Source of the DNA: a phage
Length of the DNA stretch: 64,000 nucleotides
Reading direction: 5' to 3' (one strand)
NCBI GenBank assembly: GCA_012401045.1
Contig: GCA_012401045.1_4704.2
Positions within the stretch are counted from its first letter, which is position 1; each line of letters begins with the position of its first letter. The notes under the pieces are model-generated. The model saw only the letters and a list, made by a program, of their open reading frames with translations. It was not told the DNA's origin and ran no database searches. Positions 5,163 through 59,260 of this stretch are shown here, piece by piece. The position numbers and the translations under genes were made by a program.

Positions 5163-7721
5163 TTACTGCTCTTCACGTTCCAGCAGATACTCGGAAGCGG
5201 TAATACCGTTTACCGTACGTACTGCTTTCAGACGAGTATCATCGCTCAGAATTACAGTAACAGATTGCAGACCTTTTACTTTGGTTTCGAAGGTCTTGAA
5301 CACCTGATCCAGCATACGAGCAATGCTTGGGTTGGTTGCAGCCGATGCGTGGGTGTAACCGCTCTGATTCAGCTTCAGAATCTTGGCGTTGGTCGGTACG
5401 CGAACAACAACATGCGGGCGCATCGCGAATACGCTGTGATTGAACCAGTAAGCGTCGTTACTATCTTCGTCGGTAACGATGTCTGGATTAACACGCATAT
5501 CCTCGACAGCCGCATCCGCCAAACGACGTTCGATTTCATCGGCGTCCAGAGAGCCATCTTTCTCCAGTTCTGCACGATACTCACTCATGGCAACCAGATG
5601 ACGTTCACGATTCGCTGCGGATTTTTCGTGAGCTGCTTTCAGGTAGTCATGCATGTTGTACAGTTCTGCCATGGAAAGACGAATGTTCCACTGACCTTCG
5701 CCGTCACGATTGCAGTAGAGACACTTCAGCATGTTGACCCAGGTATAGTAGCAATTGGAGAATTCATCTTCAATGAACTTCTGGTCCATTTTAAGATCGT
5801 GAATCAGCCAACCGGACAGTTCTCCGATATCATCAACGAAGCTAGAGATGGTGGTTTCAGAGAAGTTCTTCGGTACGATACGTTTGATCAGCTTATTGAC
5901 GTCTTTGGTCATGCTATCGTTCAGGAAATGCCAAATACGCAGAGGAATAACATCTCGATACTGTTGCATGATCTGACGATAAGCTTTGATATCGTCGCTA
6001 CGACCTTTATCAATAGACAACGCATCCAGGAATTCATGGATTGCATCCAGCTCTTTGTCGGTATAGGTTCCCAGATAGGAATTGACGGTGGCAAGGAATG
6101 CTAATGCGTCGTTTTGGTTGACGTCGGTGTTGGTCTGCTGAATGATTGCCACTGAAGCTTTGGTTTCAGCATCCTCAACGCTTGACGCTGCGATTGCGTC
6201 GGTGACGGTAAACAGTTTCATTTCGCGCTGCTCACCGACAACGATTGGCTCACGTTGAACCGGTTTGTTAAGACTAACACGAACAACTTCTGCTTGCGCG
6301 ATGCGATCCAGTTTTGCCATTTCCTGCTCTGCCATACGACGAGCGGTTGGATCTGATTCAAGTTCGATGTATTCCACTTCTTCCTCCGTGAGGGATGTAA
6401 TGTCAACAATGGTTTCATGAAGAATTCCGTTTTCGTCGATACGTGCTCGACGAGCGAAGTGCCTGAAGTCATACAACGTCGGCCAACGACTATTAGGTGC
6501 AAAGTCTTTGGCTTTCAGACGCATCTGCATAAATTCTTCATGTTGAACAACACGACCGTAACGCTTAGCATCTTCGGTCGCATCAATTGGATTAACGGTC
6601 TTTGTTACCGTAGCAGAACGAGCCGTACGAACGGGTTCCGGTTTCACCTGCGCAGGTTCAGGTTGAACGGGTTTCTGCTGCCCAGCCTTAACATGCCATT
6701 CTGGCTCTTCGTACTGTTCAGCAAACTGTTCAGCCGCTGCAAAGATATCGTTGATACCACCAATATCTCCTTCAGGATTTGTCGAGTAAATCCGTGGTTG
6801 TGGTGCCTCGTAACGCGGCGCTGTGTTAACAGGTACCTCATCAACGATAGGATCGTCATCACCAACATCATACAAACGGTTGAACGCACAATCCTTCGAA
6901 TCGATGTATGATGGCGCTTGTGGTTGGACAACCGTAGGTCGAGGTTGTGTGCCGTATCCTGGTGTTGTTGGAGCCATACCACGCATAACTGCAGGACTAG
7001 GTTGGTATTGCGGTTGTGGGTAGGTTCCACCATACATGGCGTACGCAGGCTGTTGTGGTTGACCATACCCGTTGCTAACCATCGCGCTTGCTTGCGGCCC
7101 ACGATAAGTCATCCCCATCTGCATCACCTGCTGCTTCAAACCACGTGATTTCTGAGCGATTTGCGCCAGGCTTCCGCTTTTATTCAGCTGCGTGTACTTA
7201 TTCGCGGCTTCCGGGTTAATGCGTGATAATTCAATCGCGCGATAATATTCCGGGTACTGATTCGGTTCAAAGAGCCACGTTACAAGATGATACAGCGCAA
7301 CTGTACTCACGGCAGCAGAGACGATCTGGTCATCGGACGCGTTCTGTGGCATCGGGTTGATGTAAGAGAACACGTTCCAACAACAGTCTTCAACAAGCGA
7401 TTCCATCATCATATCGTTATTGGTATAACGTGCGACGAACTCGGTTTGTATTTTGTCTTGCTGAGCGAAGTCTTTCAGGACATTAAAGATGGCTTGACGG
7501 ATTTTGACGATCGTCGCTTCTTGGGTGATGAAGTTATAGTTCTGCTGATATGAGGGTTGTTGGTATTGTGGTGGTTGATAGGCGTTATTCGGGTATGCGC
7601 CGTACGGCGATTGCTGATACTGTTGCTGACTAACCTGTTCAGCCGCATAATTAACCGTGCTCGTATAAGGGTTTTCGCTATAGCCCATTTGTTGATACAT
7701 GTTGTTACTGCCATTATACAT
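5163..7721 (-). CDS. hypothetical protein (852 aa) with Gln/Tyr/Pro-rich low-complexity regions
   Basis: ORF track; AAAGGA RBS; N-terminal ~60 aa and an internal ~75 aa stretch are Q/Y/P/G-rich (QQPAYAMYGGTYPQPQYQPSP). Confidence 0.85.
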   Translation of the reverse strand: MYNGSNNMYQQMGYSENPYTSTVNYAAEQVSQQQYQQSPYGAYPNNAYQPPQYQQPSYQQNYNFITQEATIVKIRQAIFNVLKDFAQQDKIQTEFVARYTNNDMMMESLVEDCCWNVFSYINPMPQNASDDQIVSAAVSTVALYHLVTWLFEPNQYPEYYRAIELSRINPEAANKYTQLNKSGSLAQIAQKSRGLKQQVMQMGMTYRGPQASAMVSNGYGQPQQPAYAMYGGTYPQPQYQPSPAVMRGMAPTTPGYGTQPRPTVVQPQAPSYIDSKDCAFNRLYDVGDDDPIVDEVPVNTAPRYEAPQPRIYSTNPEGDIGGINDIFAAAEQFAEQYEEPEWHVKAGQQKPVQPEPAQVKPEPVRTARSATVTKTVNPIDATEDAKRYGRVVQHEEFMQMRLKAKDFAPNSRWPTLYDFRHFARRARIDENGILHETIVDITSLTEEEVEYIELESDPTARRMAEQEMAKLDRIAQAEVVRVSLNKPVQREPIVVGEQREMKLFTVTDAIAASSVEDAETKASVAIIQQTNTDVNQNDALAFLATVNSYLGTYTDKELDAIHEFLDALSIDKGRSDDIKAYRQIMQQYRDVIPLRIWHFLNDSMTKDVNKLIKRIVPKNFSETTISSFVDDIGELSGWLIHDLKMDQKFIEDEFSNCYYTWVNMLKCLYCNRDGEGQWNIRLSMAELYNMHDYLKAAHEKSAANRERHLVAMSEYRAELEKDGSLDADEIERRLADAAVEDMRVNPDIVTDEDSNDAYWFNHSVFAMRPHVVVRVPTNAKILKLNQSGYTHASAATNPSIARMLDQVFKTFETKVKGLQSVTVILSDDTRLKAVRTVNGITASEYLLEREEQ

Positions 7722-7755
7722 TTCTTACGATCCTTTTTATTTATTCGGTTATGTG

Positions 7756-9552
7756 TCAATCGATTATGTCACGATCGTTAATTTCTACAATTTCTTCATC
7801 GAATCGACCGACGTCTTTCTTCAAGCCTGCATTGGTTGCTGCAACGTCATTTGCAATTTGTGGGGTAATGATTAACCGACCGCGTTCGTCGATAGGTGCG
7901 TACATACTGAACTTCTGACGTCCGGTTGGTTCGGAGTGTGGAAGATTCAGATAGCTTGCGCAGAACGGGATGGAACCACTAACCAAACGACTCTCGTCAG
8001 CCAATGCAGCACCGCCTGCGTTTTGGCTCTGGAGAACAACATGCGTGCTCACTTTGAACAGCATGCAATCACCAGGTGACTGAATCGATGTTGCCACTTT
8101 CTCACGTTTGTCACGATTGCTCTGGATATTGAGAATCGCTTCCGTTGCAACTTGATTTCGCAACGCCTTCTGTACATCGCGATTGGTCATCTCTTTACGG
8201 TTGTTCTGTCGTTTACCACGCTCCGTGGTTTTAAGATGGAACCCCAGTTTAAAGATGCTCTTACGCACATCCTCCATGACATATTCCAACACCATCAATT
8301 CCTTACCGAACATCGTCGTGGTATCAACACGACTCATTTCGATAGTAACATTGTCAATCAGATAGGCCATAAATTCATAGAAGTCGTCGCAAGGAATATT
8401 TTCCTGTTTGAACTTCTTCTGCTGAATTTCGTCAACGTAAAGATCGAGACTGTCGATGTGGTGGTTTACATCACGCAACAAACGCGCATCCGCATTGTTG
8501 TTATTAAAGATAATCAAACCGAGTAATGTACGCCAATGGTCTGGCGCATTCGCGAACTCCTCAACCGGATAGTCTTCCGGAAAACGATCGTAATAACGGT
8601 CGATGAGATACAAGAATGCACCGACAAGGCCAAGAACAATACGTTCCGTGCCTCCACGTCTTACAGCAATTTGAATATCAGGATGTTTGTAACGTACAGC
8701 GCTAGCGCTACGACTTTTACCGCTTTTGCTGATACTAAAACCTTTAGGAATAACCCCCATGGTGCGATAGATTACCCATTGGTCACGCGGAAAATCGCGT
8801 TCAGCAAGGTTCCGTCCGGTTACGGCTTCGACACCTGCAAAACGTCGGAAACACTCACCCACCCCGTACTTCGCAAAGAGATAGTGACCCAGTGTGGTTA
8901 CGCTGGTGTGGTTGATGTTGTCACCGTTCACTTTACTTTGTTTGGTAAGATGATAGATTTGTGACCAGGGTAATGACAGGTAATGACGATAATCGATACC
9001 GGTCGGTGTATCATTGCTCAGGAACTGATACGGCGTACGTTTAACCGTGATTTTGTCACGCGGAAGCATGATGAACGCCATGTCTTTCGTGTAACTGATT
9101 ACCGGGTCAGCGAGCACTGCACTGAGAATGAAGTTCGCACCACGTAGACGCATTTTACCACCCTGACCTACCGCGGGTAATAGGAGAGGATGTCGGATAA
9201 TGCAGTAGTCCTTTCCGGGTTCACGACGGTCACCTGATTCCATCGCGCCGTACCAGCGGAATTCTAGCATCACCATAAACACATCGGATGGCGCAAGGTC
9301 GAAGGTCAGCTTACCGCTATCCTTCCCTTTGGTTTTCTTTCCTCCGCTTAAGTAGTGGAACTGTTCGCGGGCCATACAGCGACGCAGGCCATGATACACC
9401 AGATCCTTAGGTAAACTATCTTTGCTGTTCCGCCAAAGACGATCAACATAGGACTCAACATCTTGCATCTTATCGACGACGATGTTGCGTGCTATCTTCT
9501 CGTTCATCTTCGGTGCAAGCCCAGCGACAGCTTTGCAGAATCTAGGATCCAT
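7756..9552 (-). CDS. hypothetical protein (598 aa)
   Basis: ORF track; start moved to second Met (ATG) preceded by AAAGGAG. Confidence 0.85.
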   Translation of the reverse strand: MDPRFCKAVAGLAPKMNEKIARNIVVDKMQDVESYVDRLWRNSKDSLPKDLVYHGLRRCMAREQFHYLSGGKKTKGKDSGKLTFDLAPSDVFMVMLEFRWYGAMESGDRREPGKDYCIIRHPLLLPAVGQGGKMRLRGANFILSAVLADPVISYTKDMAFIMLPRDKITVKRTPYQFLSNDTPTGIDYRHYLSLPWSQIYHLTKQSKVNGDNINHTSVTTLGHYLFAKYGVGECFRRFAGVEAVTGRNLAERDFPRDQWVIYRTMGVIPKGFSISKSGKSRSASAVRYKHPDIQIAVRRGGTERIVLGLVGAFLYLIDRYYDRFPEDYPVEEFANAPDHWRTLLGLIIFNNNNADARLLRDVNHHIDSLDLYVDEIQQKKFKQENIPCDDFYEFMAYLIDNVTIEMSRVDTTTMFGKELMVLEYVMEDVRKSIFKLGFHLKTTERGKRQNNRKEMTNRDVQKALRNQVATEAILNIQSNRDKREKVATSIQSPGDCMLFKVSTHVVLQSQNAGGAALADESRLVSGSIPFCASYLNLPHSEPTGRQKFSMYAPIDERGRLIITPQIANDVAATNAGLKKDVGRFDEEIVEINDRDIID

Positions 9553-9591
9553 CACACACTCCTTTCAGAAAGTTGCTTAAGCAGATTAAAG

Positions 9592-11276: not shown

Positions 11277-11365
11277 TATCACGGTGCCGGATGAATGTCC
11301 GGTGCAATGAAACCATCCGCAACGTTGTCATCAAGAATATCATCCAACGAAGCAGCTACGGTAGT

Positions 11366-13588
11366 TCAGTTAGTCTGAACCGGCAGCTTGATGTTTTCAG
11401 TGTAGACCTTACGCAGGTTCACAACGTTAATCAGACCCAGCAGCGGGCAGTTGTTAACGAAGCGGCAGCGCGGCTGAACCATGGTTTCTTTAGAAACCTG
11501 ACCGTTACGGGTAACCTGAGCAACAGATACCAGTTCCGGTACGTACAGGAACATACCGAAGGTCAGCGGATCCGGAGAACCCTGGATACCACGAGACAGG
11601 GTCACGAAGATCTTATCGCGCAGCATGACGTTCGGGTTATCTACAACCACGAAGTTGAAGCTTACACCGACGGTACGGAAATCGCCATCGGTCTGCAGGA
11701 ACTGCGGGATGTAGTTGTCAGTTGCTACTACGCAACGCGGTTTCTCATCGGCGTTGGAAGACAGCAGCTGCAGAGCTGGCTGATAACCAGACTCGGAGTA
11801 CATGCGGTATGCCATCTCACGAATCACGTTCATGATCGCAGCAGACACTTCAGCACGACGTTCTGCAGTGGTGGTACCCTGAACAGATTTCTCCAGGTCC
11901 AGATTGATTTCTTCGAACCACGGACGGATCAGGTAACGACCGAAACCTTCGATCTGGATGTCACCGAACTGACGGAAGCGAGAGGTCGCAACCGCTTTCA
12001 GTGCGTCTTTGTAGCTGAACAGTTTCTCAACCATCAGGTTGTCGAAACGTGCGTTAGCAGCTTGGATCAGAACGTCCAGGTCAGCAGCGTTTTCTTCCCA
12101 ATCCAGCGGACGAGGAATGGAGAACGGAGCCAGCAGGCCGATTGCGTAACGTTCTTGCTTCATGTTGAAGTCAAGGTGCTTACCGCGTTCACGACGGTTG
12201 CTGTTGTTACGGCGGATACGCAGTTCGTAACCAACCAGTTTGAAGCTCAGGTCTTCAGCCAGTTGTTTGAACTCTTCGCTCTTACGCGGTTGTTCGATGT
12301 TGTCCTGATCAACCAGGCGATACAGTTCAGCGTTAGCGCCGTTAACACGCAGACCCGCTTTCTCTACGTTGGAAGAACCGTAAACTTCGATCGCCAGCTG
12401 AGCAGCAGATTTCGCATCGATGATGTCCTGCAGCGCTTCGGCTTTCGCACCTTTAACGTCTTTGGTGTTCTCATCAACGAAGATGGAGTGGGTGTCGAAC
12501 GCCAGGGTCATTTTGCGGAAGTCGCCTTCCAGGGATTTCTGGAAACCGTTGGTGATCAGACCAGATACGTCGAACGGTACGTAAGAGGTTTTGCTGTGCT
12601 TGGTAGATTTGATTTCCACCAGGATTTTGGTCAGCGTGATCTGGGCGTCCAGCGCGTCGGTGTTGTCGCTATAACCGTTAGCCAGGATGCTATCGTCTTC
12701 AGCGATACCGATCATGTCGATCAGTTTATCAACAGCCAGGTAAGACGTTTTATAAGTTACGCCTTTAATTTCGATGTCGCGCGGAGCAACGATAGCTTTG
12801 TCAACGAAGTACTGCGCGTTAGCATCGTCAGCACGATAGATCGGATGCAGATCGGTCACGTCGTTGGACAGAACGTCGTTGTACATGAACGCATCCAGCA
12901 GCGGACGACGTACCCAATCAGCCGGAGTACCGTCGGCGTTACGACGCAGGTGGTTGAACACCAGCGGACGACGGAAAGATACGTCGTAACCGATCTGGTT
13001 CGGAGCCAGAACGATGGTGTTGTACAGTTCGTTACCCATGCGGCTCAGACGAGAAGCCTTCACGTTGAACACAACGGAGTACGGCATCATGTCACGCAGT
13101 TCTTTCTGGTCGTAGGACAGCTGAACCAGTTCTTCAGATTCGCAACCGCAGGAATCAGCAGCCATCATGACGAAGTTAGAGCTGTCAACTTCACGGCCAG
13201 ACGGAGTGGTGCTGATGTTCATGGAACGTGCTTGTTTAGCATATTCCACCGGGTTACCATGAGCCAGCATGATCAGTGCTGCTGCACGAGCCTGCTGTGC
13301 GTTCATGGTGAACAGCTGTTCTTCAATACGCTGCTTCTCTTCCGGAGTGGTGGTTTCGAAGCCCAGCATGGACAGAACCGGTTCTTCTGCTTTACGGATG
13401 TCGCTGCTGAAGCTCTTAACATCCATTTCGTTAACCAGTTTGTCCATGGATTTGAAATCAACCTTAGAAGCAGATTCCATAGACAGGAAGGTGTTCTCCA
13501 GACCTTTGTCTGCTGGTTTGCTACCATTAGCGGTCAGGAACTGGCGAGTGGCCGCGACCTGTTGGCTAAGAAGGGTTTTATCATTCAT
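11366..13588 (-). CDS. major capsid protein candidate (740 aa, jumbo-phage size class)
   Basis: ORF track; size typical of phiKZ-like capsid proteins (~740-750 aa); very strong highly-expressed codon bias (ctg, cgt, ggt, aac); AAGGAT RBS; followed by stem-loop b. Confidence 0.7.
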   Translation of the reverse strand: MNDKTLLSQQVAATRQFLTANGSKPADKGLENTFLSMESASKVDFKSMDKLVNEMDVKSFSSDIRKAEEPVLSMLGFETTTPEEKQRIEEQLFTMNAQQARAAALIMLAHGNPVEYAKQARSMNISTTPSGREVDSSNFVMMAADSCGCESEELVQLSYDQKELRDMMPYSVVFNVKASRLSRMGNELYNTIVLAPNQIGYDVSFRRPLVFNHLRRNADGTPADWVRRPLLDAFMYNDVLSNDVTDLHPIYRADDANAQYFVDKAIVAPRDIEIKGVTYKTSYLAVDKLIDMIGIAEDDSILANGYSDNTDALDAQITLTKILVEIKSTKHSKTSYVPFDVSGLITNGFQKSLEGDFRKMTLAFDTHSIFVDENTKDVKGAKAEALQDIIDAKSAAQLAIEVYGSSNVEKAGLRVNGANAELYRLVDQDNIEQPRKSEEFKQLAEDLSFKLVGYELRIRRNNSNRRERGKHLDFNMKQERYAIGLLAPFSIPRPLDWEENAADLDVLIQAANARFDNLMVEKLFSYKDALKAVATSRFRQFGDIQIEGFGRYLIRPWFEEINLDLEKSVQGTTTAERRAEVSAAIMNVIREMAYRMYSESGYQPALQLLSSNADEKPRCVVATDNYIPQFLQTDGDFRTVGVSFNFVVVDNPNVMLRDKIFVTLSRGIQGSPDPLTFGMFLYVPELVSVAQVTRNGQVSKETMVQPRCRFVNNCPLLGLINVVNLRKVYTENIKLPVQTN

Positions 13589-13737
13589 TGAAAGTATCCT
13601 TTACAGAATTAACTTATATAAGTCGGTCGATAGACCATAGCGTACACGCGTGCATGCGCCACTATAGTATCAGTAAACACTTACCGTTATTGAGGTCGTG
13701 ATACAACACTAAAAATGCCGCATAACTTTTCCCTACG

Positions 13738-14358
13738 TCATAAACGACGCAGGCGATAATGGATGGAACGATTGGTGCAATATGAACGGAACAGCGGCAA
13801 TTGCGCAACTTCCGCAAGACTCATATTAATTCGCAGGTGTTCAATAACGGCGCTGTAGTTATCAGCAATACGATCGCTCAATAACTCTTCTGCCAATAAA
13901 GGAAGACAATCGACAACAATCGCGATCACATCCTCATTAACATAACGCACCCGAACACTCAACGGACGTTTGTCTGGGCTGTAAGTTGGATCCGCCAAAC
14001 GACGTTCAATATCACGCGGATAGCTCGTCAGTAAATGGTAATAACCATTGTCATAACGATTGATGTACTCACACAGCACATCAACATTCTTCTCTGGCGG
14101 CAAACCTGTTTCGTCATAGTGATACGCAAACATACCACCAAGCAGGTTGTTAAGATGAACCGCAGGGTTCGCTTGTTCGTGTTCTTTCGTGATGAAGAAA
14201 GGCACATTTTGAGCTGCGAAATAAAAACCTACATCATTGGGCGATAGTATGCCGAAAAGACTTTTAGGGTCTAATAACACCTGTAAGTCATCACGCGCAT
14301 TTCGAATAATCGCGTGTTCTACCCAATTCGGAACGACGAGATATCGGAGTTCCTTCAT
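13738..14358 (-). CDS. hypothetical protein (206 aa)
   Basis: ORF track; AAAGAGG RBS. Confidence 0.8.
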   Translation of the reverse strand: MKELRYLVVPNWVEHAIIRNARDDLQVLLDPKSLFGILSPNDVGFYFAAQNVPFFITKEHEQANPAVHLNNLLGGMFAYHYDETGLPPEKNVDVLCEYINRYDNGYYHLLTSYPRDIERRLADPTYSPDKRPLSVRVRYVNEDVIAIVVDCLPLLAEELLSDRIADNYSAVIEHLRINMSLAEVAQLPLFRSYCTNRSIHYRLRRL

Positions 14359-14397
14359 TATGATTACCTCTTTGCAAGTATCGAAAGGATTGAGTCG

Positions 14398-16008
14398 ATG
14401 GACCCAAAACAGATAGCCATTAAGATTATTACGTTACTGTTTCGTAATGCACAATTGAACCATCCCGATCCCAGTACGATCGAACATGTTAAATCCGTCT
14501 TAGATAAAGTCGAACCCCCGAAAAACCATCTCGCTACAGACGTAGATAGAGAGGTTTTCAACAACCTGATGAATACCATTCATTGGATGTTGGAACAACC
14601 ATTATCGGAACCTTTCGATAAACAACAGTTGTTACAAAGGATACGTTTGGATTGCCTTGAACAAAGCAATCTTTACGAGATTCTTGCCGACGGACTGTAC
14701 GATATCGAAGACGACGCTCATATCAGTAAGGTCTGTTCACTCTATTACAACGAATTACGTAATCTGATTACCCGTCGTCGTGTTTTCGAAACCTTTAGAA
14801 ACACGTACATGGATATCAGTAACGGGCGACTTGGGGATAAAGAATTTTTCGATGCAATGGCGAATCTGAAATTATCGCTAGACAGTATCGAAATGGATAC
14901 CGAAAATCCCGAAGAGATGTCGTGTATGATTGACGGCTTTATCGCTGACAGCGAAGACGATATCGAGAAAGTCGAACGTATGTTCGTCAAAGCGATGGAA
15001 CGTAACAGTCCTGAAGGTGGATTTGTAACCGGCTGGCAAGGCTTTAATAAAATGTTGGGGTCGGTCGGCGTTTTACGTCGCGGTACCTTAGGACTGATCG
15101 GTGCAATGCAGCACCGGAACAAGTCAGGCGTGTTGTTAAAACTGTTCACACATCTGGCATTGTACAACAAACCCCATTTCTTTTTCCCGGAGCGAGCAAA
15201 GAAAGCATTACTGATTCATTTGTCGACAGAAAACGAAGTGGAAGAAAACACGCTTCAGATATACAAGAACATGCGAGAACAGGAAACAGGCGAATATGTC
15301 GATATTCGTAAGATTGACCCTCGCGAGGCATCACGTTATGTGTTGAAGGTGTTCAACGATGCGGGTTTCTCTGTTTGTATGCGTCGTGTTGATGGGATGA
15401 GTTATAAACAACTCGCTAATCTCATCGACCATTTCGAACGCATGGGTTATGAAGTCATGGCGTTGTTCATTGACTATCTGAAAATGTTCTCATCGGAAGG
15501 GTTGGATAGAAATGGACCGACCGGCGCATGGCTCCAAGAACTCTTCAACAAAGTACGTAACCTCTGCAGCGTCAAACGTATTTTAGGTATGACTGTACAC
15601 CAGCTGTCATCCGATGCGAAGATGCGTGCGCGTGATGGTAACGATGAAGAGTTTGTTGACCAGGTCGCAGGTTTAAGTTACTGGGATGGTTGTAAAGGGA
15701 TCGACCGTGAGATTGACCTTGAAGTGATTGTTGATATCGTTAAGGAGCCGGGCAAACGTCAAAGCTGGCAGGTCTTTGCGTTAGGGAAAGACCGTCAACC
15801 GGATAACGGTTCAACGAAACCTGAAGACAAACATTTCGCGATGCCATTCCAAACCATCGGGATGCTTCCTGATGATTACGGTAAGAAAGCAGTATATTGC
15901 CGCAAGGTTGGCGGACAACCTGTCTCCGAGGGAGGTAAAGGTCCGTGGAACAAGTTCGATGAAAACGCAGCACCGAGTAATGAATTACAATTTGATTTAG
16001 AATTTTAA
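14398..16008 (+). CDS. DnaB-like replicative helicase (RecA-like domain) with atypical P-loop
   Basis: Start moved to ATG after AAGGA; motifs LIGAMQHRNKSG (Walker A-like, N in place of G), MALFIDYLKMF (DnaB H2 / Walker B, compare IDYLQLM), VHQLSSDAK (compare SQLNR). Confidence 0.6.
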   Translation: MDPKQIAIKIITLLFRNAQLNHPDPSTIEHVKSVLDKVEPPKNHLATDVDREVFNNLMNTIHWMLEQPLSEPFDKQQLLQRIRLDCLEQSNLYEILADGLYDIEDDAHISKVCSLYYNELRNLITRRRVFETFRNTYMDISNGRLGDKEFFDAMANLKLSLDSIEMDTENPEEMSCMIDGFIADSEDDIEKVERMFVKAMERNSPEGGFVTGWQGFNKMLGSVGVLRRGTLGLIGAMQHRNKSGVLLKLFTHLALYNKPHFFFPERAKKALLIHLSTENEVEENTLQIYKNMREQETGEYVDIRKIDPREASRYVLKVFNDAGFSVCMRRVDGMSYKQLANLIDHFERMGYEVMALFIDYLKMFSSEGLDRNGPTGAWLQELFNKVRNLCSVKRILGMTVHQLSSDAKMRARDGNDEEFVDQVAGLSYWDGCKGIDREIDLEVIVDIVKEPGKRQSWQVFALGKDRQPDNGSTKPEDKHFAMPFQTIGMLPDDYGKKAVYCRKVGGQPVSEGGKGPWNKFDENAAPSNELQFDLEF

Positions 16009-49322: not shown

Positions 49323-51074
49323 ATGAGCGAACAAGAACGAAAACCTAAGAAGAAACTGCTCGGTATTCAATGTCGACACATCAGCTATAACGAAGCGAAC
49401 GATGGCAGCAAGAACGACCTCATGATCGCAAAAGAGATCATGTTCTTTGATGACAATACGCAAGCGACGAACCTTCGCTTCTTTGAGAATTACAAACGTC
49501 CGTTTTGGGTGACGGTAGAGAGTAAACGTAAGAACAAATATAAAAAGGAAAGCGAGAAGCTCTCGCATGTGCGTCGCTACGATGTCCGCCAAAGCGAACT
49601 GGTTGAAAAGATCAGCTCGGTACTTTATAAAAGACGTGCTGACGATAACACCCGTTTACAGCAGCTTGCACGGAGTCCATACCTCTATGGAACGGACGTT
49701 AGCGCCAGCTGTTATTTAAAAACCCAGTACAACACAAAATGGCCGGAATACGTCGATAAATTACCCGCTTCCATTGCCTGTTTCGATATCGAAACCGACG
49801 TTGTCCACGGACACGGTAAGATCGTTTGTATGTCTATTACAATGGGATACAATGCGATACTTTGCTATACCAAGGACTTCGTTGGTCATATTCCGAATGC
49901 CATTGAGAAAACCCATGAGAAGATTCGATATTACCTGGCCGAACGTCTGAATACCAAAGAAGATCCCCACGCATTCGAAAAATATCAGTACGATGTTCGA
50001 ATCGTAGAAAGCCCGGCACAAGCGGTCATCCAATGCATGCAGAAGGTTCACGAATGGCAGCCGGATTATCTCCTTGGCTGGAATATCGCGTTCGATATTC
50101 CGCGCATGCTCCAGGCACTGAACGAGGAAGGGTATCGTCCCGAGGATGTTTTCTCCGATCCCCGTATACCACCTAAATATCGTATTGCTCGCTGGGTACC
50201 ACCGAAGACCGACAAGGTATCTGCTTCAGGTCGTAAAACCAACCTTACCCTTGAGCAAACCTGGCCGATGTTTTATACGATGGCTACGTATCAGGTTATG
50301 GATGCGATGTGTGGCTATAAGTTCGTTCGTTTAGGAAGACCGGATGAAGGACGCTATTCACTCGATGCGGTGTTAGAGCGAAATAAATGCCATACGAAAT
50401 TAAAAGCTATTCCTGGTACAGAGGGGTTCACGGAGCTTGCCTGGCACGAAGAGATGCAAACGAACCATCAAATCGACTACGGCGTATATAACCTTTGGGA
50501 TAACCAGGGTATTGAGGCGTTGGACCAGAAAACAAAAGACTATTCGATGACCATCCCTATCCGTTTAGCGGCGTCGGATTTGAAAGATTTCAGTTCTAAC
50601 CCTAAACGTATCTGCGATAAACTTTTCTTCGTTTATCTTAACCGTGGGGAAGTCATGGGATGTACCGCTGACGACATGACCCAGGAAGAAGATAAGTGGG
50701 TTATCTCACGAGCTGGACATATCGTCACATTACCATGCGATCTCATGGCTGACAACGGCATTCATCTCTTCTGGGATATGCCGAACCTGAGAAGTTATAT
50801 CCGTCTATTCGTTGCAGACCTTGACATTAGCAGTTCATACCCGAATGGGCAGATCCTGTTGAATCTATCCAGAGCGTGTGTTTTTCGCGAGCTCTCACGC
50901 ATTGAGGGCGTCTCTGACTATCAATTCAGGAAGTTAGGTATCAACTTTATTACCGGAGGTAAAACGAACGCTGTAGACTTCTGTAGAATCGTTTATAAAG
51001 CACCATCGATGTTTGAACTTTTAGAACATTTCGATGCAACGCGTCCAAAAGAGGAAGCGCGGACCATCGAATGA
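49323..51074 (+). CDS. family B DNA polymerase, N-terminal part (3'-5' exonuclease domain plus motifs A and probable B; no motif C)
   Basis: ORF track; Exo I FDIETD, Exo II NIAFD, Exo III YNLWD, motif A DLDISSSYPNG, possible motif B KLGINFITGG; protein ends ~35 aa later. Confidence 0.7.
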   Translation: MSEQERKPKKKLLGIQCRHISYNEANDGSKNDLMIAKEIMFFDDNTQATNLRFFENYKRPFWVTVESKRKNKYKKESEKLSHVRRYDVRQSELVEKISSVLYKRRADDNTRLQQLARSPYLYGTDVSASCYLKTQYNTKWPEYVDKLPASIACFDIETDVVHGHGKIVCMSITMGYNAILCYTKDFVGHIPNAIEKTHEKIRYYLAERLNTKEDPHAFEKYQYDVRIVESPAQAVIQCMQKVHEWQPDYLLGWNIAFDIPRMLQALNEEGYRPEDVFSDPRIPPKYRIARWVPPKTDKVSASGRKTNLTLEQTWPMFYTMATYQVMDAMCGYKFVRLGRPDEGRYSLDAVLERNKCHTKLKAIPGTEGFTELAWHEEMQTNHQIDYGVYNLWDNQGIEALDQKTKDYSMTIPIRLAASDLKDFSSNPKRICDKLFFVYLNRGEVMGCTADDMTQEEDKWVISRAGHIVTLPCDLMADNGIHLFWDMPNLRSYIRLFVADLDISSSYPNGQILLNLSRACVFRELSRIEGVSDYQFRKLGINFITGGKTNAVDFCRIVYKAPSMFELLEHFDATRPKEEARTIE

Positions 51075-51112: not shown

Positions 51113-51165
51113 ACATGCGAAGCCCCTCCCCCTGGCGGAAGCCGGAGGGAGGGGTGAGGTTTATG
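51113..51165 (-). terminator. GC-rich extended stem-loop, family member h (GGAA tetraloop)
   Basis: CATGCGAAG-CCCCTCCC...GGC-GGAA-GCC...GGGAGGGG-TGAGGTTTATG between convergent genes. Confidence 0.45.
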
Positions 51166-51646
51166 CGCGTTCGTTACCAACCGTTACTTTGTAGTCAGCG
51201 TCGGTTAAGAAAATAGACAGGAATCCATGTTCTTTGCAAATCTTACTAAGGATGTCAGCAATGATTTCGTTGATCATCGGCTTGTTTGCAAGGGCATAGA
51301 TGTACCCGGGTGTAAAAGAAAGTGCGTGATTGATCATAGGCTCATGAGAAGCCAAGATAAGGATCACGTGATGCTTCCCATCGTCGGTAACGACCGCTTG
51401 CGTAGACACGAAGAAATCAGTGAAGCAGCAGCGATCACAGGCTTTAGGTATATACAAGTCACCCAGAGCTTCGTCACGTGCTTTTACGTGTGTTTCAGGG
51501 GTGATGCTGCTAAGTTGATCTTCAGCGAGATCCAAGACATCCTCAATCGTTTTAAGAATAGCGTTGCGGAAATCCTCACGGTAGAATGGGATGATATCAC
51601 GATCGTTCATGTAATCGCCGGATTCGATAGTAAAGTTGATGTTCAT
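51161..51646 (-). CDS. hypothetical protein (161 aa)
   Basis: ORF track; AGGAG RBS. Confidence 0.75.
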   Translation of the reverse strand: MNINFTIESGDYMNDRDIIPFYREDFRNAILKTIEDVLDLAEDQLSSITPETHVKARDEALGDLYIPKACDRCCFTDFFVSTQAVVTDDGKHHVILILASHEPMINHALSFTPGYIYALANKPMINEIIADILSKICKEHGFLSIFLTDADYKVTVGNERA

Positions 51647-51690
51647 TGAATGCTCCTAGTGGTTATGTCGATTGATCGATGTATTGATTT

Positions 51691-51715
51691 ATGTTTGAAG
51701 GTGTTGTTCACCTTC
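51691..51715 (+). repeat. 25-nt exact repeat copy 2 (intergenic)
   Basis: Identical to 30368-30392; between stop of 51717-52181 and start of 51161-51646. Confidence 0.8.
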
Positions 51716-51716
51716 G

Positions 51717-52181
51717 TTAGATATCGTCATCCGTGGTGCCGTAGGACATATGCTGAATTAATTTTCTCGGCTCGATGAAAATACGACATGTGATAAACAC
51801 ATCGGGATCGTATTGCTCCACGCAACGTCCGAAGGTTTGTTTTGCGGCTTGGCGCATCGATGTTATTTCCTGATCGTTCATCGCATTATCGAATTCGATG
51901 TTGATCGTGATTTTATCGGGAAATAAATAGATAAAGTAATCGCCGCTGATACCACCATCATCAAAGTGACGTTCATTGTAGCACTGGACGAGCTTACCTT
52001 CACGTTCTTTCTGATACCATCCAAGGATACTATTAAGACCTCTGTCCACGCATTCGAATGCTTGAGTAATAACATCCTCAACGACGGATGCAGGCGTGGG
52101 ACCATTGAATAGACGATCTAAGCGCTTTTTCATCGATTTGGTTTTCTCGTTCATGATTTCTTTTCCTGTTATAATCGGCAT
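51717..52181 (-). CDS. hypothetical protein (154 aa)
   Basis: ORF track. Confidence 0.75.
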   Translation of the reverse strand: MPIITGKEIMNEKTKSMKKRLDRLFNGPTPASVVEDVITQAFECVDRGLNSILGWYQKEREGKLVQCYNERHFDDGGISGDYFIYLFPDKITINIEFDNAMNDQEITSMRQAAKQTFGRCVEQYDPDVFITCRIFIEPRKLIQHMSYGTTDDDI

Positions 52182-52221
52182 ACAACCCTTCCCCGGCCTG
52201 ATGGCTAGGGAAGGGGCTATG
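52179..52221 (-). terminator. GC-rich extended stem-loop, family member i (diverged)
   Basis: CATACAA-CCCTTCCCC...GGGAAGGGG-CTATG. Confidence 0.4.
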
Positions 52222-52229
52222 CTACGTTG

Positions 52230-52628
52230 TTATGCTTCGCAATCAGCTGAAGGCGTCGCGCCTTTCTTACCAGCGATACACCAAATCCGACACGCTGGGT
52301 AATGGTTAACCTCTAGAGAGCAAGGAATGTTATATTTCTCTTCCAGCGCATAAAGACATTTCGTTAGCTGCTCCAGCGCGTTCTCGTCGTGTCGTAACGC
52401 GTGGTGGCCTAATCGATGTTGGTCGTTCTTTATATACGCCTCGAAGAGAACATGTTGGCGATGTACGCTGACGTTTACAGCCTCGAGTATAGCTTGGTCG
52501 AGCATACGACTAAAGCACATCAACGAGTCAGATACGTTTTCTCGCTTAACCAGATCAATCATGGCGGGAATATACGAATGGTCGATGTTATCGATGACCG
52601 CTTTAGCGACGGAATCAGCAACGTTCAT
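52230..52628 (-). CDS. small protein, tandem paralog family A (copy 1)
   Basis: ORF track; start moved to internal Met to match paralog; MNVADSVAKAVIDNIDH versus MSIVESIVKAVNDNIDH. Confidence 0.7.
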   Translation of the reverse strand: MNVADSVAKAVIDNIDHSYIPAMIDLVKRENVSDSLMCFSRMLDQAILEAVNVSVHRQHVLFEAYIKNDQHRLGHHALRHDENALEQLTKCLYALEEKYNIPCSLEVNHYPACRIWCIAGKKGATPSADCEA

Positions 52629-52664
52629 CTTTTTAATCCCTAGTTTGTTATTGATCACGTATAT

Positions 52665-53060
52665 TTACTCTTTGACGTCAGTTGTCGTTTCGACATGCTT
52701 CTCACTACTGACGTACCAGAGCAGGTACGCTGGGAAAAGATTGACCTCTAAGCTAAATGGAATATTGTATTTCTCTTCCATTTTACAGAGATGTTCTTTA
52801 AGTAAATTTCTCGCGTCTCTGTCACCACGAACAGAGTGCCAGTCTAGTTCTTTGTTCTCCTTTACCAGGACCTCTACGATGATACGTTGCTCGTGAACCT
52901 CGGTTTTCACAGTGAAAAGTAAATCGCTGCTATCAAAACGGGTAAAACGAATGTATGAACCAGGTGTTTTTTCTTGTTTAATAATATCGATCATGGTAGA
53001 AATGCGCGGATGATCGATGTTGTCGTTAACAGCTTTAACGATGGATTCTACAATGCTCAT
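52665..53060 (-). CDS. small protein, tandem paralog family A (copy 2)
   Basis: ORF track; EEKYNIPFSLEVNLFPA versus EEKYNIPCSLEVNHYPA. Confidence 0.75.
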   Translation of the reverse strand: MSIVESIVKAVNDNIDHPRISTMIDIIKQEKTPGSYIRFTRFDSSDLLFTVKTEVHEQRIIVEVLVKENKELDWHSVRGDRDARNLLKEHLCKMEEKYNIPFSLEVNLFPAYLLWYVSSEKHVETTTDVKE

Positions 53061-53092
53061 TTTTTATCCTTAATGTTATCGATTTGGAAATA

Positions 53093-53860
53093 TTACTTAT
53101 TTTTGCTTTCTTTATAGACAGTTGTTACCCACGATGGGAAAGCCGGATGGAAACAGAGCGTGAACGTAACTGTCGTATCGTATTTAAACGCACAGTTCAC
53201 TAACCGGGTATCTAACGTTTTCCTTAATCCGTCATCATCGTTATCGATGATGGTCATATCTCTTAATATCCCAAGCACGTTAACGCCATCGGGTGTCTGG
53301 GTTACGACAAGTCGTCGTAATGGCCCGCATGTATAGTCACGTACAAATCCTTTCTTCGGGTCCGATACCCTGTTTAACGCATCGTGATTTTTGATGAATT
53401 CATCGGCGATACAATAGGTTTGTTCCCTTGCTTTATCGGGATCGTATTCTGCTAATAGTTCCTTCGTGTCGAACGTTATCATGTTATTATCATTCGATTC
53501 AGAAGGGAAGCATAAAACTAAACGAACAGGGTACTCGTATTGATCTGTTCTCGTTTCGAAAGCATTAGCTAAACACGGCTTGTATGCCTTTGCGTCGACA
53601 TTGTCCAAACATGGATGCAATAATGCATGAATAACGGCACCATCGTCAGTTAAACCGAATTCCAGAAATTGTACCCTATCAGTATCCGCTACGGTTTTCT
53701 GAAGGTACGCTTTACCGTTAACAATATCGGTATCCCACATATCGTCGTTTAACGATTCTTCAAACTTATCGAATATATGGTTTACGAGATTGACGAGTTC
53801 ATCAATACGGCACTGTTGGTTGAATTCGATTAATCGTTGAACTTTATCTTTGATAGACAT
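53093..53860 (-). CDS. hypothetical protein (255 aa)
   Basis: ORF track. Confidence 0.8.
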   Translation of the reverse strand: MSIKDKVQRLIEFNQQCRIDELVNLVNHIFDKFEESLNDDMWDTDIVNGKAYLQKTVADTDRVQFLEFGLTDDGAVIHALLHPCLDNVDAKAYKPCLANAFETRTDQYEYPVRLVLCFPSESNDNNMITFDTKELLAEYDPDKAREQTYCIADEFIKNHDALNRVSDPKKGFVRDYTCGPLRRLVVTQTPDGVNVLGILRDMTIIDNDDDGLRKTLDTRLVNCAFKYDTTVTFTLCFHPAFPSWVTTVYKESKNK

Positions 53861-53862
53861 GA

Positions 53863-54321
53863 TTACCCATTAGCTCCTTCTTCGTCTGGAGAGTATTCCA
53901 TCGTGTAGAATTCATAACCATCGGAAAACTTGAGTGTTAATGTAATAGGGAAATCGCACGGCATAGCTGATTTCGTAAATGCGTTATTAGCAACATCAGC
54001 CAACCGACGTATAGCATCAGTCCCGCTGACGCTGAACGGTAGTTGTATGTTGATAAGGATGCGGTGCTTGTAAACATGGAAAACAACGGTACTGTCAAGA
54101 TAAACGCTATGGAACGGTATTGTTGGGATGCGTTCCACAATGGAAAAATACGTCCCGTCATTATCGCTATGCCCCATCGACCAAATATCGGATTTGCGTA
54201 GATTTTGTTTGAGGGATTCGATACTTCGAGTGACGGTCTCATCAACAGGCGTGACGTAAGTGTCTTTATGCGAGTCGAAAAGTTCGTTGACGTTAGATTC
54301 GAATGAATACATTGTTGCCAT
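53863..54321 (-). CDS. small protein, tandem paralog family B (copy 1)
   Basis: ORF track; QLPFSVSGTDAIRRL...TLKFSDGYEFYTMEYSPDEEG. Confidence 0.75.
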   Translation of the reverse strand: MATMYSFESNVNELFDSHKDTYVTPVDETVTRSIESLKQNLRKSDIWSMGHSDNDGTYFSIVERIPTIPFHSVYLDSTVVFHVYKHRILINIQLPFSVSGTDAIRRLADVANNAFTKSAMPCDFPITLTLKFSDGYEFYTMEYSPDEEGANG

Positions 54322-54782
54322 TATTCTACCTCTTTCTTCATCTTCATCGGAACAGAGAGTGCTGTTATCTCTGTTCCATTATCCGGTTCATACTCCAATG
54401 TAACGAGATTGCAGCCATCCGATAATTCATAATCGATCGCTAGGGGGAACGAGATACCGTGCGACTTTATGCATTTACCAAATGTCTCGTTGGCTGTATA
54501 CATTAGAAGTTGCTTTGCGGCAAGCCCGTTTACGCTGAAAGGTAATTGTGCTGTCGCAGCGATACGATTATTGTAAACTCTGATATCGGTGATATCTACA
54601 ATCGTAGCATTGCCGTGTTGTGTTGTTGGAACGGATAGGTTGTAGAAGTAAGGTTCGGAGTCGGAATCGGGCTCGTTAAATAATTCCCAGCACCCGTCCT
54701 CCTGCAATCTTACTTCGAGTATTTCAAAGCTTTTAATTATCGATTCTACCAGCTGCTCACCGTAAGAATCCCATGTCGTCAT
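54321..54782 (-). CDS. small protein, tandem paralog family B (copy 2)
   Basis: ORF track; QLPFSVNGLAAKQLL...DYELSDGCNLVTLEYEPDNG. Confidence 0.75.
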   Translation of the reverse strand: MTTWDSYGEQLVESIIKSFEILEVRLQEDGCWELFNEPDSDSEPYFYNLSVPTTQHGNATIVDITDIRVYNNRIAATAQLPFSVNGLAAKQLLMYTANETFGKCIKSHGISFPLAIDYELSDGCNLVTLEYEPDNGTEITALSVPMKMKKEVE

Positions 54783-54853
54783 TTTTTAACACCTTCGACA
54801 CCTTTTAACCGATACGTGTCCCATCTAACAAGGGACACGATATCGTTGATTAA

Positions 54854-55354
54854 TTACTCTTCTGTGTTTTCATTGTCAGGATCGTAGTGGAATTCGAACA
54901 GCCCTGAACCGTCGTGTCCGTTGATTGTTAGTATAACGGGCATATCGAATCCTCGGACACGCGAATGAAAACATTGTGCTAATTTTAGTTTGGCGTATGC
55001 CGCTACTTCATTGACAGCAATACACGATTCACCTGTTATACTCAGTATAACGTCGATACTAACAACGTTGTCGTGCAACGCAAAACGCCAGCGATCGATA
55101 CGATTATTATCTTTATCGGTTGTCTCGTTTACGAGATAGACTTTATCGTCAACCGACAAAGCGGGACTCCAGCAACGATCGTTTATTAAATTCGCCTGGA
55201 GTTTTAGTATCGTCTGATCGATAATATCCCAACACGTAACCAGCGTGGTGTCAGGCACTGAGTAGAGAAGGGCGTGCACTTTATCCTTTATTTTAAGTGC
55301 TTCCGCAGGACGTCCGCAAATACCATGCATTTCAACTTTCTTATTCATATTCAC
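54854..55354 (-). CDS. small protein, tandem paralog family B (copy 3, diverged)
   Basis: ORF track; TINGHDGSGLFEFHYDPDNEN. Confidence 0.7.
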   Translation of the reverse strand: MNMNKKVEMHGICGRPAEALKIKDKVHALLYSVPDTTLVTCWDIIDQTILKLQANLINDRCWSPALSVDDKVYLVNETTDKDNNRIDRWRFALHDNVVSIDVILSITGESCIAVNEVAAYAKLKLAQCFHSRVRGFDMPVILTINGHDGSGLFEFHYDPDNENTEE

Positions 55355-55391
55355 TTCTTTCTTAATCTAAATGTTAGTTGGGGTGGGATGT

Positions 55392-55994
55392 TTACATGCT
55401 TTCTAGCATATTGACGATCATGGAACCCATACCGAAACTCGGTCTTTCACCGATGTACTCAGCAAGCTGGCGATGGACGTCTTTTGGATTTCCTTCTTCA
55501 CCATCGGCATCGATGTAAACCGAAAAAGAAACCGAATCGGAATCCACGCTGATAACCAGACGACGTTCATTGCGTTCCTTGAGCGTGTCGACGATAGATG
55601 CTTTCAGTACCGGGATCGCATTCATCGCGTGCAAGATATCTCCATCGGGTTTCGGCAGATCGATCTTTTCTTTCAGGTCGATATTGATGTTGGTTACAAT
55701 TGGATTGAGGTCGACCTTGACATAATCGTTAGGATACATGCGAATAATCGCACGATCGATATCTGAGCCGTAAAAGTCAACACGCGGCTTTAACACTTCT
55801 TTGTTTGGATCCATGTTTTCATCCATCCCAGCCTGCAAGAAACGTTCTACGTTATCCAGTTCACGATAAACTGACGCTTCGATTTCTTTCAGATAGTTGG
55901 CTGCGGTTTCATGTTCTTTACGCAGCTCGTCTTTAAGGAGCTGTACGGTGGTTTCACTGGAACGGATGCTGTTCGCGAATTGTGTAATTGACAT
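55392..55994 (-). CDS. hypothetical protein (~200 aa)
   Basis: ORF track; start moved to ATG (MSITQ) after AAGGA. Confidence 0.75.
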   Translation of the reverse strand: MSITQFANSIRSSETTVQLLKDELRKEHETAANYLKEIEASVYRELDNVERFLQAGMDENMDPNKEVLKPRVDFYGSDIDRAIIRMYPNDYVKVDLNPIVTNINIDLKEKIDLPKPDGDILHAMNAIPVLKASIVDTLKERNERRLVISVDSDSVSFSVYIDADGEEGNPKDVHRQLAEYIGERPSFGMGSMIVNMLESM

Positions 55995-56092
55995 ATCGAA
56001 TTCCTTAAATTCTCTTGAGTTCAATTAATGATGAAAAGCTGTAAAAAAAGGTGGGGCGAACCCCACCAAAACGTCAGACACACGCAGGAAAA

Positions 56093-57958: not shown

Positions 57959-59260
57959 TTAACTAATATAAAGTTCAGGATCGTAAGGCGCTAACGATAC
58001 ACTGGCGTTATGCATTGCTTTCATCATAGTGTTCATGAAAACGTTGTTTACACCGGTGATCTCTGCCCCGATCGCGTCTGGGGTTGGAGCCATCGCGTTA
58101 CCGCAACAGGTAGCACAGTATTCCAATGGGCCTGCTTTACAACGTTGAGGATCGCGTAACTTGATGGTTTGTCCTTCCAAGGAAGCAAGTAATTCAGCAT
58201 CAATAAGTTTAAGCGCCGCACCGTCGATCATGTAACGGCCGACAAGCAGCTTATCTTTGATATGATCGCGGTTTACCGTGAACAGAATATGTTCGTGGGT
58301 ACCGCAGTCGTCCATCGTGATTTTAAGGTTCTGTGTCGCACGTTGTGATTCTTTCGCCGTCTGTCCCGCTAAAGCGGTCAGTGCGCCACGTGAGAACGAA
58401 CCTGCACGTGCACTGTTGTTGTACTCCGCCCAATGGTCGACACGCATCCCTTCAGCCAGGCTGTGTGTGATAACGTTACGTTTACCAGGGTCAACGAAGT
58501 CGGCTTCAACCCCCATCATGATGTGTGTTTTCTTTCGAGTATTACCGAAACTCTTGCCTGGGTTAATATAGAACCCTTCCGATTCGTCGCCCTTAAAGGA
58601 TTCTTTATCCATTTTGGTTAGCGTGGCTTCGAGTTTGATCAGTTCTTCAGGCGTGAACTTACCTTCCTCTTGTAAGCGTGCTAACTCTTTATCGCGATAG
58701 GCAATAATATCATCATCGACCGTTAACGCTTTATCACTCATTGATGGAACAATTAAACGGTTGATAGCGGTTAATGCGCTGATATTGTTGGTGAATTTCT
58801 TCACTTCGCTTGCGTACAACGGACCAATTGGACGTTCGTTAGGATCGGGTATTCCCTCTTCAGGATCGTCCGCTACGCGTGGCGCAATCAGTGACTCCAG
58901 TGTACCGCTGGTCAACCGTCCTGCCTGGTATTCAATCTGAATACCGAAAGCATCATAAAGGACGTACATATTGAACAACGCTTCACCGAAGGTTGTGGTG
59001 GTTGTATTCTTAACCGACGGTAGATCACCAGGTGCAAGCTCCAATGACTCCCAGAAACTCAACAAGGGTTTTGTTGGCTCGGTTTCCCATTGGTGTTCTT
59101 CACCGTCGATGGTAACCGTAACGACGTTACCTTGACGACGTAATTTAGGCTGATACTTCTCAGCGCCGCCTTCCGTAAAAGCAAATGCGTCGTTAATCCA
59201 TTCAAGATAACGGTAGTGCCCTTCACGCATCGCGTAAAGGAAATATTCACGAGGTGTCAT
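57959..59260 (-). CDS. hypothetical protein (433 aa) with C-terminal Cys cluster
   Basis: ORF track; CKAGPLEYCATCCGNAMAP. Confidence 0.85.
   Translation of the reverse strand: MTPREYFLYAMREGHYRYLEWINDAFAFTEGGAEKYQPKLRRQGNVVTVTIDGEEHQWETEPTKPLLSFWESLELAPGDLPSVKNTTTTTFGEALFNMYVLYDAFGIQIEYQAGRLTSGTLESLIAPRVADDPEEGIPDPNERPIGPLYASEVKKFTNNISALTAINRLIVPSMSDKALTVDDDIIAYRDKELARLQEEGKFTPEELIKLEATLTKMDKESFKGDESEGFYINPGKSFGNTRKKTHIMMGVEADFVDPGKRNVITHSLAEGMRVDHWAEYNNSARAGSFSRGALTALAGQTAKESQRATQNLKITMDDCGTHEHILFTVNRDHIKDKLLVGRYMIDGAALKLIDAELLASLEGQTIKLRDPQRCKAGPLEYCATCCGNAMAPTPDAIGAEITGVNNVFMNTMMKAMHNASVSLAPYDPELYIS

Follow-up and report, generated by a model that had tools for sequence, protein, structure and literature searches.

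The open reading frame at positions 49323–51074 (plus strand) of the 64,000-nucleotide stretch of phage DNA analysed here (the window) can be assigned with high confidence as an intact gene for DNAP-N, the N-terminal subunit of a two-gene family B DNA polymerase of the nucleus-forming jumbo phages (Chimalliviridae), with the partner subunit, DNAP-C, encoded elsewhere. The original prediction had been of a split polymerase with its other domains encoded elsewhere, and this is borne out by a second protein family, Pfam PF20286, which contains motifs B and C, the KxY motif and a thumb. The arrangement accounts for the presence of 'half a polymerase' in a jumbo phage genome, with two distantly encoded chains that would share a single active site.

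The split reading is correct but not new, given that both chains are already represented in the literature and that Pfam has a family (PF20286) for the C-terminal half. A 'split subunit DNA polymerase' of phiKZ is named by Thomas et al. (2016; PMC5105663), who credit Cornelissen et al. (2012), and Iyer et al. (2021; PMC7824862) described both proteins, including the 'divergent family B DNA polymerase' of phiKZ-like phages, e.g. YP_009153312.1 of SPN3US. Basu et al. (2026 preprint; PMC13648687) report that PhiKZ DNAP-N assembles with DNAP-C into a stable 1:1 complex, that the structure of this complex, determined by cryo-EM at 2.1 Å, is homologous to B-family polymerases, and that a third PhiKZ protein, Rhc, composed of an RNase H and a clamp-like domain, raises polymerase activity. 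Because recognition of the split dates from 2012 and the PhiKZ structure was reported in 2026, current knowledge is unchanged, and the window gene amounts to an unremarkable, near-identical orthologue of a gene already known from an established system.

The DNAP-N gene and its product

The window belongs to a Goslar-like E. coli phage; its DNA is 96.3% identical to that of Escherichia phage vB_EcoM_Goslar, a nucleus-forming jumbo phage, and corresponds to approximately 30–96 kb of the Goslar genome. Its gene content is that of a chimallivirus, with multisubunit RNA polymerase genes and a divergent DnaB: a homologue of the phiKZ gp123 subunit of the non-virion RNA polymerase (nvRNAP) lies at 7756–9555 (minus strand; PDB 7ogp_E, E 2.9e-40), a match to PF20307 (divDNAB) at 14314–16008 (plus strand; E 2e-120), and a match to the RNA polymerase beta subunit family phrog_2962 at 57959–59260 (minus strand).

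The reading frame at 49323–51074 is real and encodes 583 amino acids. It matches the phrog_3011 family ("DNA polymerase") from end to end (E 7.8e-178), with protein residues 8–576 aligned to profile positions 5–570 of 576, and it is therefore a full-length family member rather than a truncated gene. Membership in this family, the N-terminal subunit of the chimallivirus split polymerase, is indicated both by the full-length similarity and by the way in which the protein ends, after motif A and a short tail. By tblastn, 291 phage records contain a homologue, every one of them belonging to the phiKZ-like/chimallivirus group (Pseudomonas 81, Erwinia 62, Salmonella 24, Vibrio 23, and others), and in 287 of these the match spans 80% or more of the query. 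Searching 1.84 billion representative proteins with a profile identified 609 clusters (at 50% identity) with E values of 1e-30 or better. Among the best 150 of 1583 representative matches, almost all proteins are about 545–640 amino acids long with matches that reach the C-terminus, and none has DNAP-N fused to a polymerase C-terminal half. The sole long outlier in this set (P0234, 894 aa) carries an acidic C-terminal extension that has no Pfam match and is not DNAP-C. At least 24 independent contigs, some of them phage contigs of about 238–244 kb, carry the identical 583-residue sequence.

The presence of Exo I, II and III and motif A had been proposed from the sequence, and the proposal is confirmed by residue invariance, by profile alignment to RB69 and by a fold match to RB69 gp43. 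Pfam itself returns only PF03104 (DNA_pol_B_exo1) over residues 147–264, with an E value of 0.008 that is below the gathering score. In an alignment of 40 homologues with 33–66% identity to the window protein, the invariant positions include D155 and E157 of Exo I (FDIETD, residues 154–159, 49782–49799), N254 and D258 of Exo II (WNIAFDIP, residues 253–260, 50079–50102), and Y389 and D393 of Exo III (YGVYNLWD, residues 386–393, 50478–50501), all on the plus strand. In motif A (DLDISSSYPN, residues 499–508, 50817–50846, plus strand), D499, D501, Y506 and P507 are invariant, as is N514 beyond it.

The family profile identifies RB69 gp43 in the PDB with a whole-sequence E value of 2.2e-6, aligning to RB69 segments 152–232, 270–380 and 404–431 and to nothing past residue 431. 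Exo II is aligned with RB69 'GWNVESFDIPYV', Exo III with 'YISYNIIDV', and the profile stretch 'aDLDvsssYPn..lNISkET' with RB69 404–431 ('FDLTSLYPSIIRQVNISPET'), which includes the RB69 motif A 'FDLTSLYPS'; the motif A stretch is weak by itself. On this alignment, D501 is the counterpart of the RB69 motif A aspartate, D411. An AlphaFold2 model of DNAP-N has a mean pLDDT of 84.5, with residues 7–460 modelled confidently and residues 460–583 poorly. A Foldseek search of the PDB with this model places RB69 gp43 first (E 1e-12, probability 1.00), and since about 455 columns are aligned to a protein of about 900 residues, approximately half of the target is covered. DNAP-N thus compared has the family B signatures of Exo I (DxE), Exo II (Nx2-3FD) and Exo III (Yx3D), and also motif A (DxxSLYPS) with its catalytic aspartate, the last on a weak local alignment to RB69; motif B (Kx3NSxYG), motif C (DTDS) and a thumb are all missing from this chain.

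A C-terminal sequence, KLGINFITGG, had been put forward as a possible motif B, and this assignment does not stand. The sequence lies within a family-specific tail (residues 515–583, 50865–51071, plus strand), delineated by column frequencies in the homologues and by the model pLDDT, which is helical and of low to moderate confidence (pLDDT of about 48–85) when modelled alone. The conserved element of this tail is R536-x-x-G-I-N-(F)-I-T-G-G-x-T-N549-A-V-D in the window protein and RxxG[IV]N-L[TS]GGx[VT]NAVE as a consensus of the 40 homologues. K537 is present in only 3 of the 40, and F542 is an insertion shared by two, so that a K-x3-N spacing does not characterise the family. The sequence resembles RB69 KLLINSLYGA at five of ten positions, but with its lysine in so few homologues we regard it as a chance look-alike of motif B; the genuine motif B, with its invariant residues, belongs to the partner family. 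The related statement that the protein ends about 35 residues past this sequence, with neither motif C nor a thumb, is accurate, the actual distance being 37 residues.

A GC-rich hairpin with a 14 bp stem and a GGAA loop is located at 51122–51155, between the polymerase gene and a convergent gene at 51161–51646 (minus strand), and is identical in Goslar. Folding of a 76-nt segment gives a minimum free energy of -33.9 kcal/mol (z -4.34), with none of 200 shuffled sequences as good; together with the list of open reading frames, this confirms the hairpin and the convergent minus-strand genes noted downstream in the original prediction. The hairpin is probably a bidirectional terminator. It was not flagged in a simple terminator scan, owing to the lack of a clean T-run.

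Group I introns at motif A

The Goslar orthologue of the window gene, gp068 (YP_009820753.1, 'DNA polymerase'), shares 96.3% nucleotide identity over exon 1 as well as the neighbouring genes and the hairpin, but it is interrupted after codon D499 whereas the window allele is uninterrupted. The interruption is a 1762-nt insertion (L001 7498–9259) that is preceded by a T and has G as its last nucleotide, and that contains gp069, a gene encoding a NUMOD1/HNH endonuclease. Within it, the Rfam model of group I introns (RF00028) is matched over its full length, at 44.7 bits (E 1.5e-9), a value below the gathering score of 50. The intron was missed in the annotation of gp068, which is consequently listed as a product of 500 aa. 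When the Goslar flanks are joined, the product is 583 amino acids long and differs from the window protein at three positions (Q222H, I282V and A464T), and the window gene is thus an intron-less allele. The corresponding empty site lies at 50819/50820 (plus strand), between codons D499 and L500 (VAD|LDISSSYPNG), so that the Goslar intron is positioned exactly at motif A. A search of the 64-kb window at the Rfam gathering threshold returned nothing.

The empty site is surrounded by a tract of synonymous differences from Goslar (50775–50861, plus strand). The two coding sequences differ at 81 nucleotides, and 29 of these differences fall within 45 nt on either side of the site, none of them altering the protein (Fisher p = 4e-19). 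This clustering is compatible with a co-conversion tract as well as with a recoded target site.

Shortened homologues account for 21 of the 120 best database matches, and in 17 of the 21 the sequence breaks off within 'HVADLD' or directly beyond it. Of two that were looked at individually, one has an HNH/NUMOD1 open reading frame with a group I intron match (75.8 bits) after it, and the other has a group I intron match of 27 bits with no open reading frame. The suggestion that introns be sought in homologues is answered by the group I intron in Goslar gp068 and by recurrent hits at motif A. Two-piece tblastn matches in phiKZ-type phages were also considered as introns and rejected; the coding sequence of phage 6B is continuous (638 aa), and the gap in the tblastn match is thus an in-frame insertion.

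It is conceivable, and we suggest it tentatively as the less probable case, that homing group I introns are actively contending for motif A of DNAP-N in Goslar-like phages and other chimalliviruses, the tract in the window then reflecting either co-conversion or selection for resistance to the endonuclease. If this is so, Goslar gp069 could mediate interference between co-infecting Goslar-like phages by cutting the polymerase gene. An intron in the PhiPA3 RNA polymerase is reportedly a parallel case of interference competition through an intron-encoded endonuclease. The polymorphism of intron presence and absence at motif A is the only mildly new element of this analysis, and a small addition to what is known.

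The partner subunit, DNAP-C

Goslar gp244 (YP_009820875.1) matches PF20286, 'Divergent Family B DNA polymerase' (divDNApol), with an E value of 2.4e-204. Its gene is located at 174314–176467 in Goslar, which puts it some 93 kb from gp068 and beyond the part of the genome that the window represents. The SPN3US DNAP-C, YP_009153312.1 (759 aa), has homologues in 302 phage records, in which the genera represented include Pseudomonas (81), Erwinia (62), Vibrio (23), Serratia (21), Aeromonas (20), Klebsiella (16), Ralstonia (13) and Escherichia (4). The two families co-occur, with nearly equal genus counts for DNAP-N and DNAP-C (Pseudomonas 81/81, Erwinia 62/62, Vibrio 23/23, Escherichia 4/4). By analogy with Goslar and from this co-occurrence, we infer that the phage from which the window derives probably also carries a PF20286 partner gene; in exact-sequence look-ups with DNAP-N and DNAP-C, there was no overlap between the sets of contigs listed.

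The polymerase motifs that DNAP-N lacks are conserved in DNAP-C. In an alignment of 44 homologues of Goslar gp244, invariant residues include R122 and K126 of the fingers; Q148, K152, N156 and G160 of motif B (K-x3-N-S-L-S-G), in which S157 and S159 are present in 42 of the 44; S404-D405-T406-D407-S408 of motif C; K484 and Y486 of KxY; and K506 and G507. None of the acidic residues on the N-terminal side of motif B is invariant in these 44 sequences, and we conclude that DNAP-C lacks motif A. The gp244 profile aligns to RB69 at residues 438–505 (which include 'RKEHK'), 553–571 ('QINRKLLINSLYGA', motif B) and 706–755 ('KRYAL...KIMG'), and over the fingers region it also matches Pol delta, Pol zeta, Pol alpha and poxvirus polymerases.

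The AlphaFold2 model of gp244 has a pLDDT of 90.2, with the fingers and motif B residues carried on two long helices (110–134 and 138–161), the SDTDS sequence in a beta-hairpin (403–410), and a helical/beta, thumb-like region at the C-terminus. A large helical insert (approximately residues 174–380) precedes motif C, and this is noted also by Iyer et al. (PMC7824862). Foldseek with this model gives RB69 and T4 gp43 as the best matches, which are modest (E about 1e-3, TM about 0.25). No chimallivirus polymerase structure was found in the PDB by sequence search with either DNAP-N or Goslar gp244.

A proposed search for an open reading frame containing motif C and a thumb was successful in Goslar, where gp244 has both, and negative in the window. 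A regular expression for motif C ([YFCVIL]xDTD[SGA]) has no match in any of the six frames of the 64-kb window, and the best tblastn match there with SPN3US DNAP-C has an E value of 0.4, giving no DNAP-C homologue. One gene within the window, at 7756–9555 (minus strand), is the orthologue of Goslar gp039, 'polymerase' (phrog_2943), and was considered as a candidate for the missing half; being the homologue of the phiKZ gp123 non-virion RNA polymerase subunit described above, it is not the missing half. There is some practical use here for annotation, in that the 500-aa product given for Goslar gp068 is mis-sized and the 'polymerase' gene in the window is really one for an RNA polymerase subunit.

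A proposed composite active site and its alternatives

In the enzyme that we propose, DNAP-N would supply the N-terminal domain and a complete 3'-5' proofreading exonuclease (D155, E157, N254, D258, Y389 and D393), followed by the first palm strand with motif A, including the putative catalytic D501 and Y506 at the steric-gate position. The break between the genes would then fall inside the palm domain, between motif A (approximately RB69 431) and the fingers (approximately RB69 438). DNAP-C would supply the fingers (R122, K126, and K152, N156 and G160 of motif B), the remainder of the palm with motif C (D405 and D407), KxY, and the thumb. With the motifs divided between two chains, the active site would be assembled from both; the distribution of the motifs suggests that DNAP-N provides one of the metal-binding aspartates and DNAP-C the others. 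The final ~70 residues of DNAP-N and the first ~80 residues of DNAP-C are without a counterpart in RB69, and these two segments may constitute a docking interface that holds the chains together. The poor model confidence for DNAP-N residues 460–583 is as expected of a segment that folds against a partner. The evidence for a 1:1 complex and for its activity comes from the published work on PhiKZ; the observations made here are the homology, the way the motifs are divided, the intactness of the reading frame and the joint occurrence of the two families.

An alternative explanation is that DNAP-N is only a stand-alone proofreading exonuclease, similar to DnaQ or epsilon and associated loosely with a self-sufficient DNAP-C, with the motif A-like sequence persisting as a relic. 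This would be consistent with the description by Iyer et al. (PMC7824862) of a divergent PolB that lacks a fused exonuclease, the exonuclease being encoded elsewhere, and with the observation that the confident part of the DNAP-N model consists of the N-terminal domain and the exonuclease. However, invariance of D499, D501, Y506, P507 and N514 among proteins with 33–66% identity is hard to square with a relic, and DNAP-C has no invariant acidic residue with which to replace motif A. Group I introns, which as a rule home into sequence under functional constraint, also hit motif A repeatedly, and the PhiKZ subunits are reported in PMC13648687 to form a stable 1:1 core complex. We consider the stand-alone exonuclease very unlikely, and slightly less improbable than the two explanations that follow.

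The gene might instead be truncated or interrupted, either as a pseudogene or an assembly artefact or because its 3' part lies downstream of an intron or intein, and the short annotation of the Goslar orthologue (500 aa, because of the intron) and the 21 shortened homologues among the 120 best database matches give some reason to ask. This explanation is already contradicted by the window gene, which spans the full 583 residues of the family, and the Goslar intron is internal, at codon 499, with a spliced product that likewise ends at residue 583. Moreover, the stop codon is followed by the hairpin and convergent genes, the window contains no motif C string, DNAP-C homologue or Rfam intron, and the identical protein is found on at least 24 independent contigs, all of which makes truncation exceedingly improbable. 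Equally hard to credit is a self-contained minimal polymerase of 583 amino acids that uses KLGINFITGG as its motif B. The similarity of this sequence to RB69 KLLINSLYGA at half of its positions is the attraction of such a proposal, but K537 occurs in only 3 of 40 homologues, the spacing is unconserved, the protein has no motif C or thumb, and an invariant motif B is present in DNAP-C. An intact DNAP-N that operates with a separately encoded DNAP-C remains by far the best account of these observations.

PhiKZ has the same two-gene architecture of DNAP-N and DNAP-C, and a physical complex has been demonstrated for PhiKZ alone (PMC13648687) and not for Goslar-like phages; SPN3US (YP_009153338.1 and YP_009153312.1) is likewise organised as two genes. 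DNAP-N proteins of the phiKZ type are about 39% identical to the window protein and are 638 aa long, with an in-frame insertion of about 60 aa relative to it, and that of SPN3US is about 29% identical. With RB69/T4 gp43 and other single-chain family B polymerases, the two chains share recognisable Exo I–III, motifs A, B and C, KxY and thumb, and for each half the top match, by structure and by profile, is RB69; however, RB69 gp43 is a single polypeptide, whereas here there are two genes, and each chain has an extra 70–80 residues or so at the break. The intein- or intron-interrupted polymerase genes of the Pseudomonas phage MIJ3 type (PMC6892783) resemble the Goslar allele in having a mobile element within the polymerase gene. 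They differ from DNAP-N and DNAP-C, whose separation does not stem from an intervening element; the genes are ~93 kb apart and their products stay as separate polypeptides. Goslar also encodes a 508-aa protein, gp190, with a Pfam RNase_H match (E 1.9e-25), and this is likely to be the counterpart of Rhc.

Introns at motif A of the split polymerase gene

A group I intron of 1762 nt sits at motif A of Goslar gp068 (7498–9259 of the Goslar locus L001, corresponding to NC_048170.1 81187–82948), the orthologue of the gene for DNAP-N, the exonuclease and motif A half of the split family B DNA polymerase; the intron carries gp069, a NUMOD1/HNH endonuclease gene. Because the intron interrupts the Goslar gene, the annotation of gp068 is cut short at 500 aa. 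In contrast, the window contains an intron-less allele, with an empty site between nucleotides 50819 and 50820. The window and Goslar coding sequences have 81 nucleotide differences, 29 of which fall within ±45 nt of the intron site (p = 4e-19), and all 29 of these are synonymous.

Among the 120 best database matches to DNAP-N there are 21 shortened homologs (including P0041, P0055, P0076, and P0079), and 17 of them terminate within the motif A sequence 'HVADLD' or just past it. Rfam group I intron matches lie directly 3' of the truncated ORF in both of the two shortened homologs inspected (L010 1945–3658 and L009 5479–5825), of which only one also has an HNH/NUMOD1 ORF. Across chimalliviruses, motif A of DNAP-N appears to be a hot spot at which introns have inserted repeatedly. 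Some of the remaining shortened homologs, a small number, stop near 'WI(I/V)', at approximately residue 457, which suggests a second site.

Relatives and neighbors of DNAP-C

A distant relative of the C-terminal part of DNAP-C, the partner half of the polymerase, is present in the Staphylococcus jumbo phage vB_StaM_PB50 (OR770614.1; 25% identity, E 5e-8). In PB50 the annotated 'DNA polymerase catalytic subunit' consists of two neighboring CDSs about 200 nt apart (L020 2685–3710 and 3908–4801); the protein could be split once more here, or an intron could have been missed in the annotation. In Goslar-like contigs, a small SH3-fold protein (PF20287 SH3DP) is encoded just upstream of DNAP-C, as already noted by Iyer et al. 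2021 (PMC7824862), and the chimallin gene is close downstream (L017 2290–2703, 3001–5154, and 6570–8154 for SH3DP, DNAP-C, and chimallin respectively).

Other genes in the window

The divergent DnaB-like replicative helicase at 14314–16008 (+) (Pfam PF20307 divDNAB, E 1.6e-120) is the helicase that accompanies the split polymerase in phages of this group. The 599-aa product of 7756–9555 (–), whose Goslar orthologue gp039 is labeled simply 'polymerase', was rejected as a DNA polymerase part; it is a homolog of phiKZ gp123 (PDB 7ogp_E, E 3e-40), a non-virion multisubunit RNA polymerase subunit.

Downstream of the DNAP-N gene are nine small genes in a row (51161–56024, –), with tandem paralogs among them: 52230–52658 and 52665–53060 (both –) share 38% identity (E 1e-31), and 53863–54321, 54321–54782, and 54854–55354 (all –) are mutually related. 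Compared by size alone, the genes are unlike Goslar gp071–gp076 beyond the first, and 51161–56024 therefore looks like a variable region.

A 766-aa ORF at 11291–13591 (+) is antisense to nearly the entire 740-aa major head protein gene (11366–13588, –); it most likely arises from codon usage and is not a gene.
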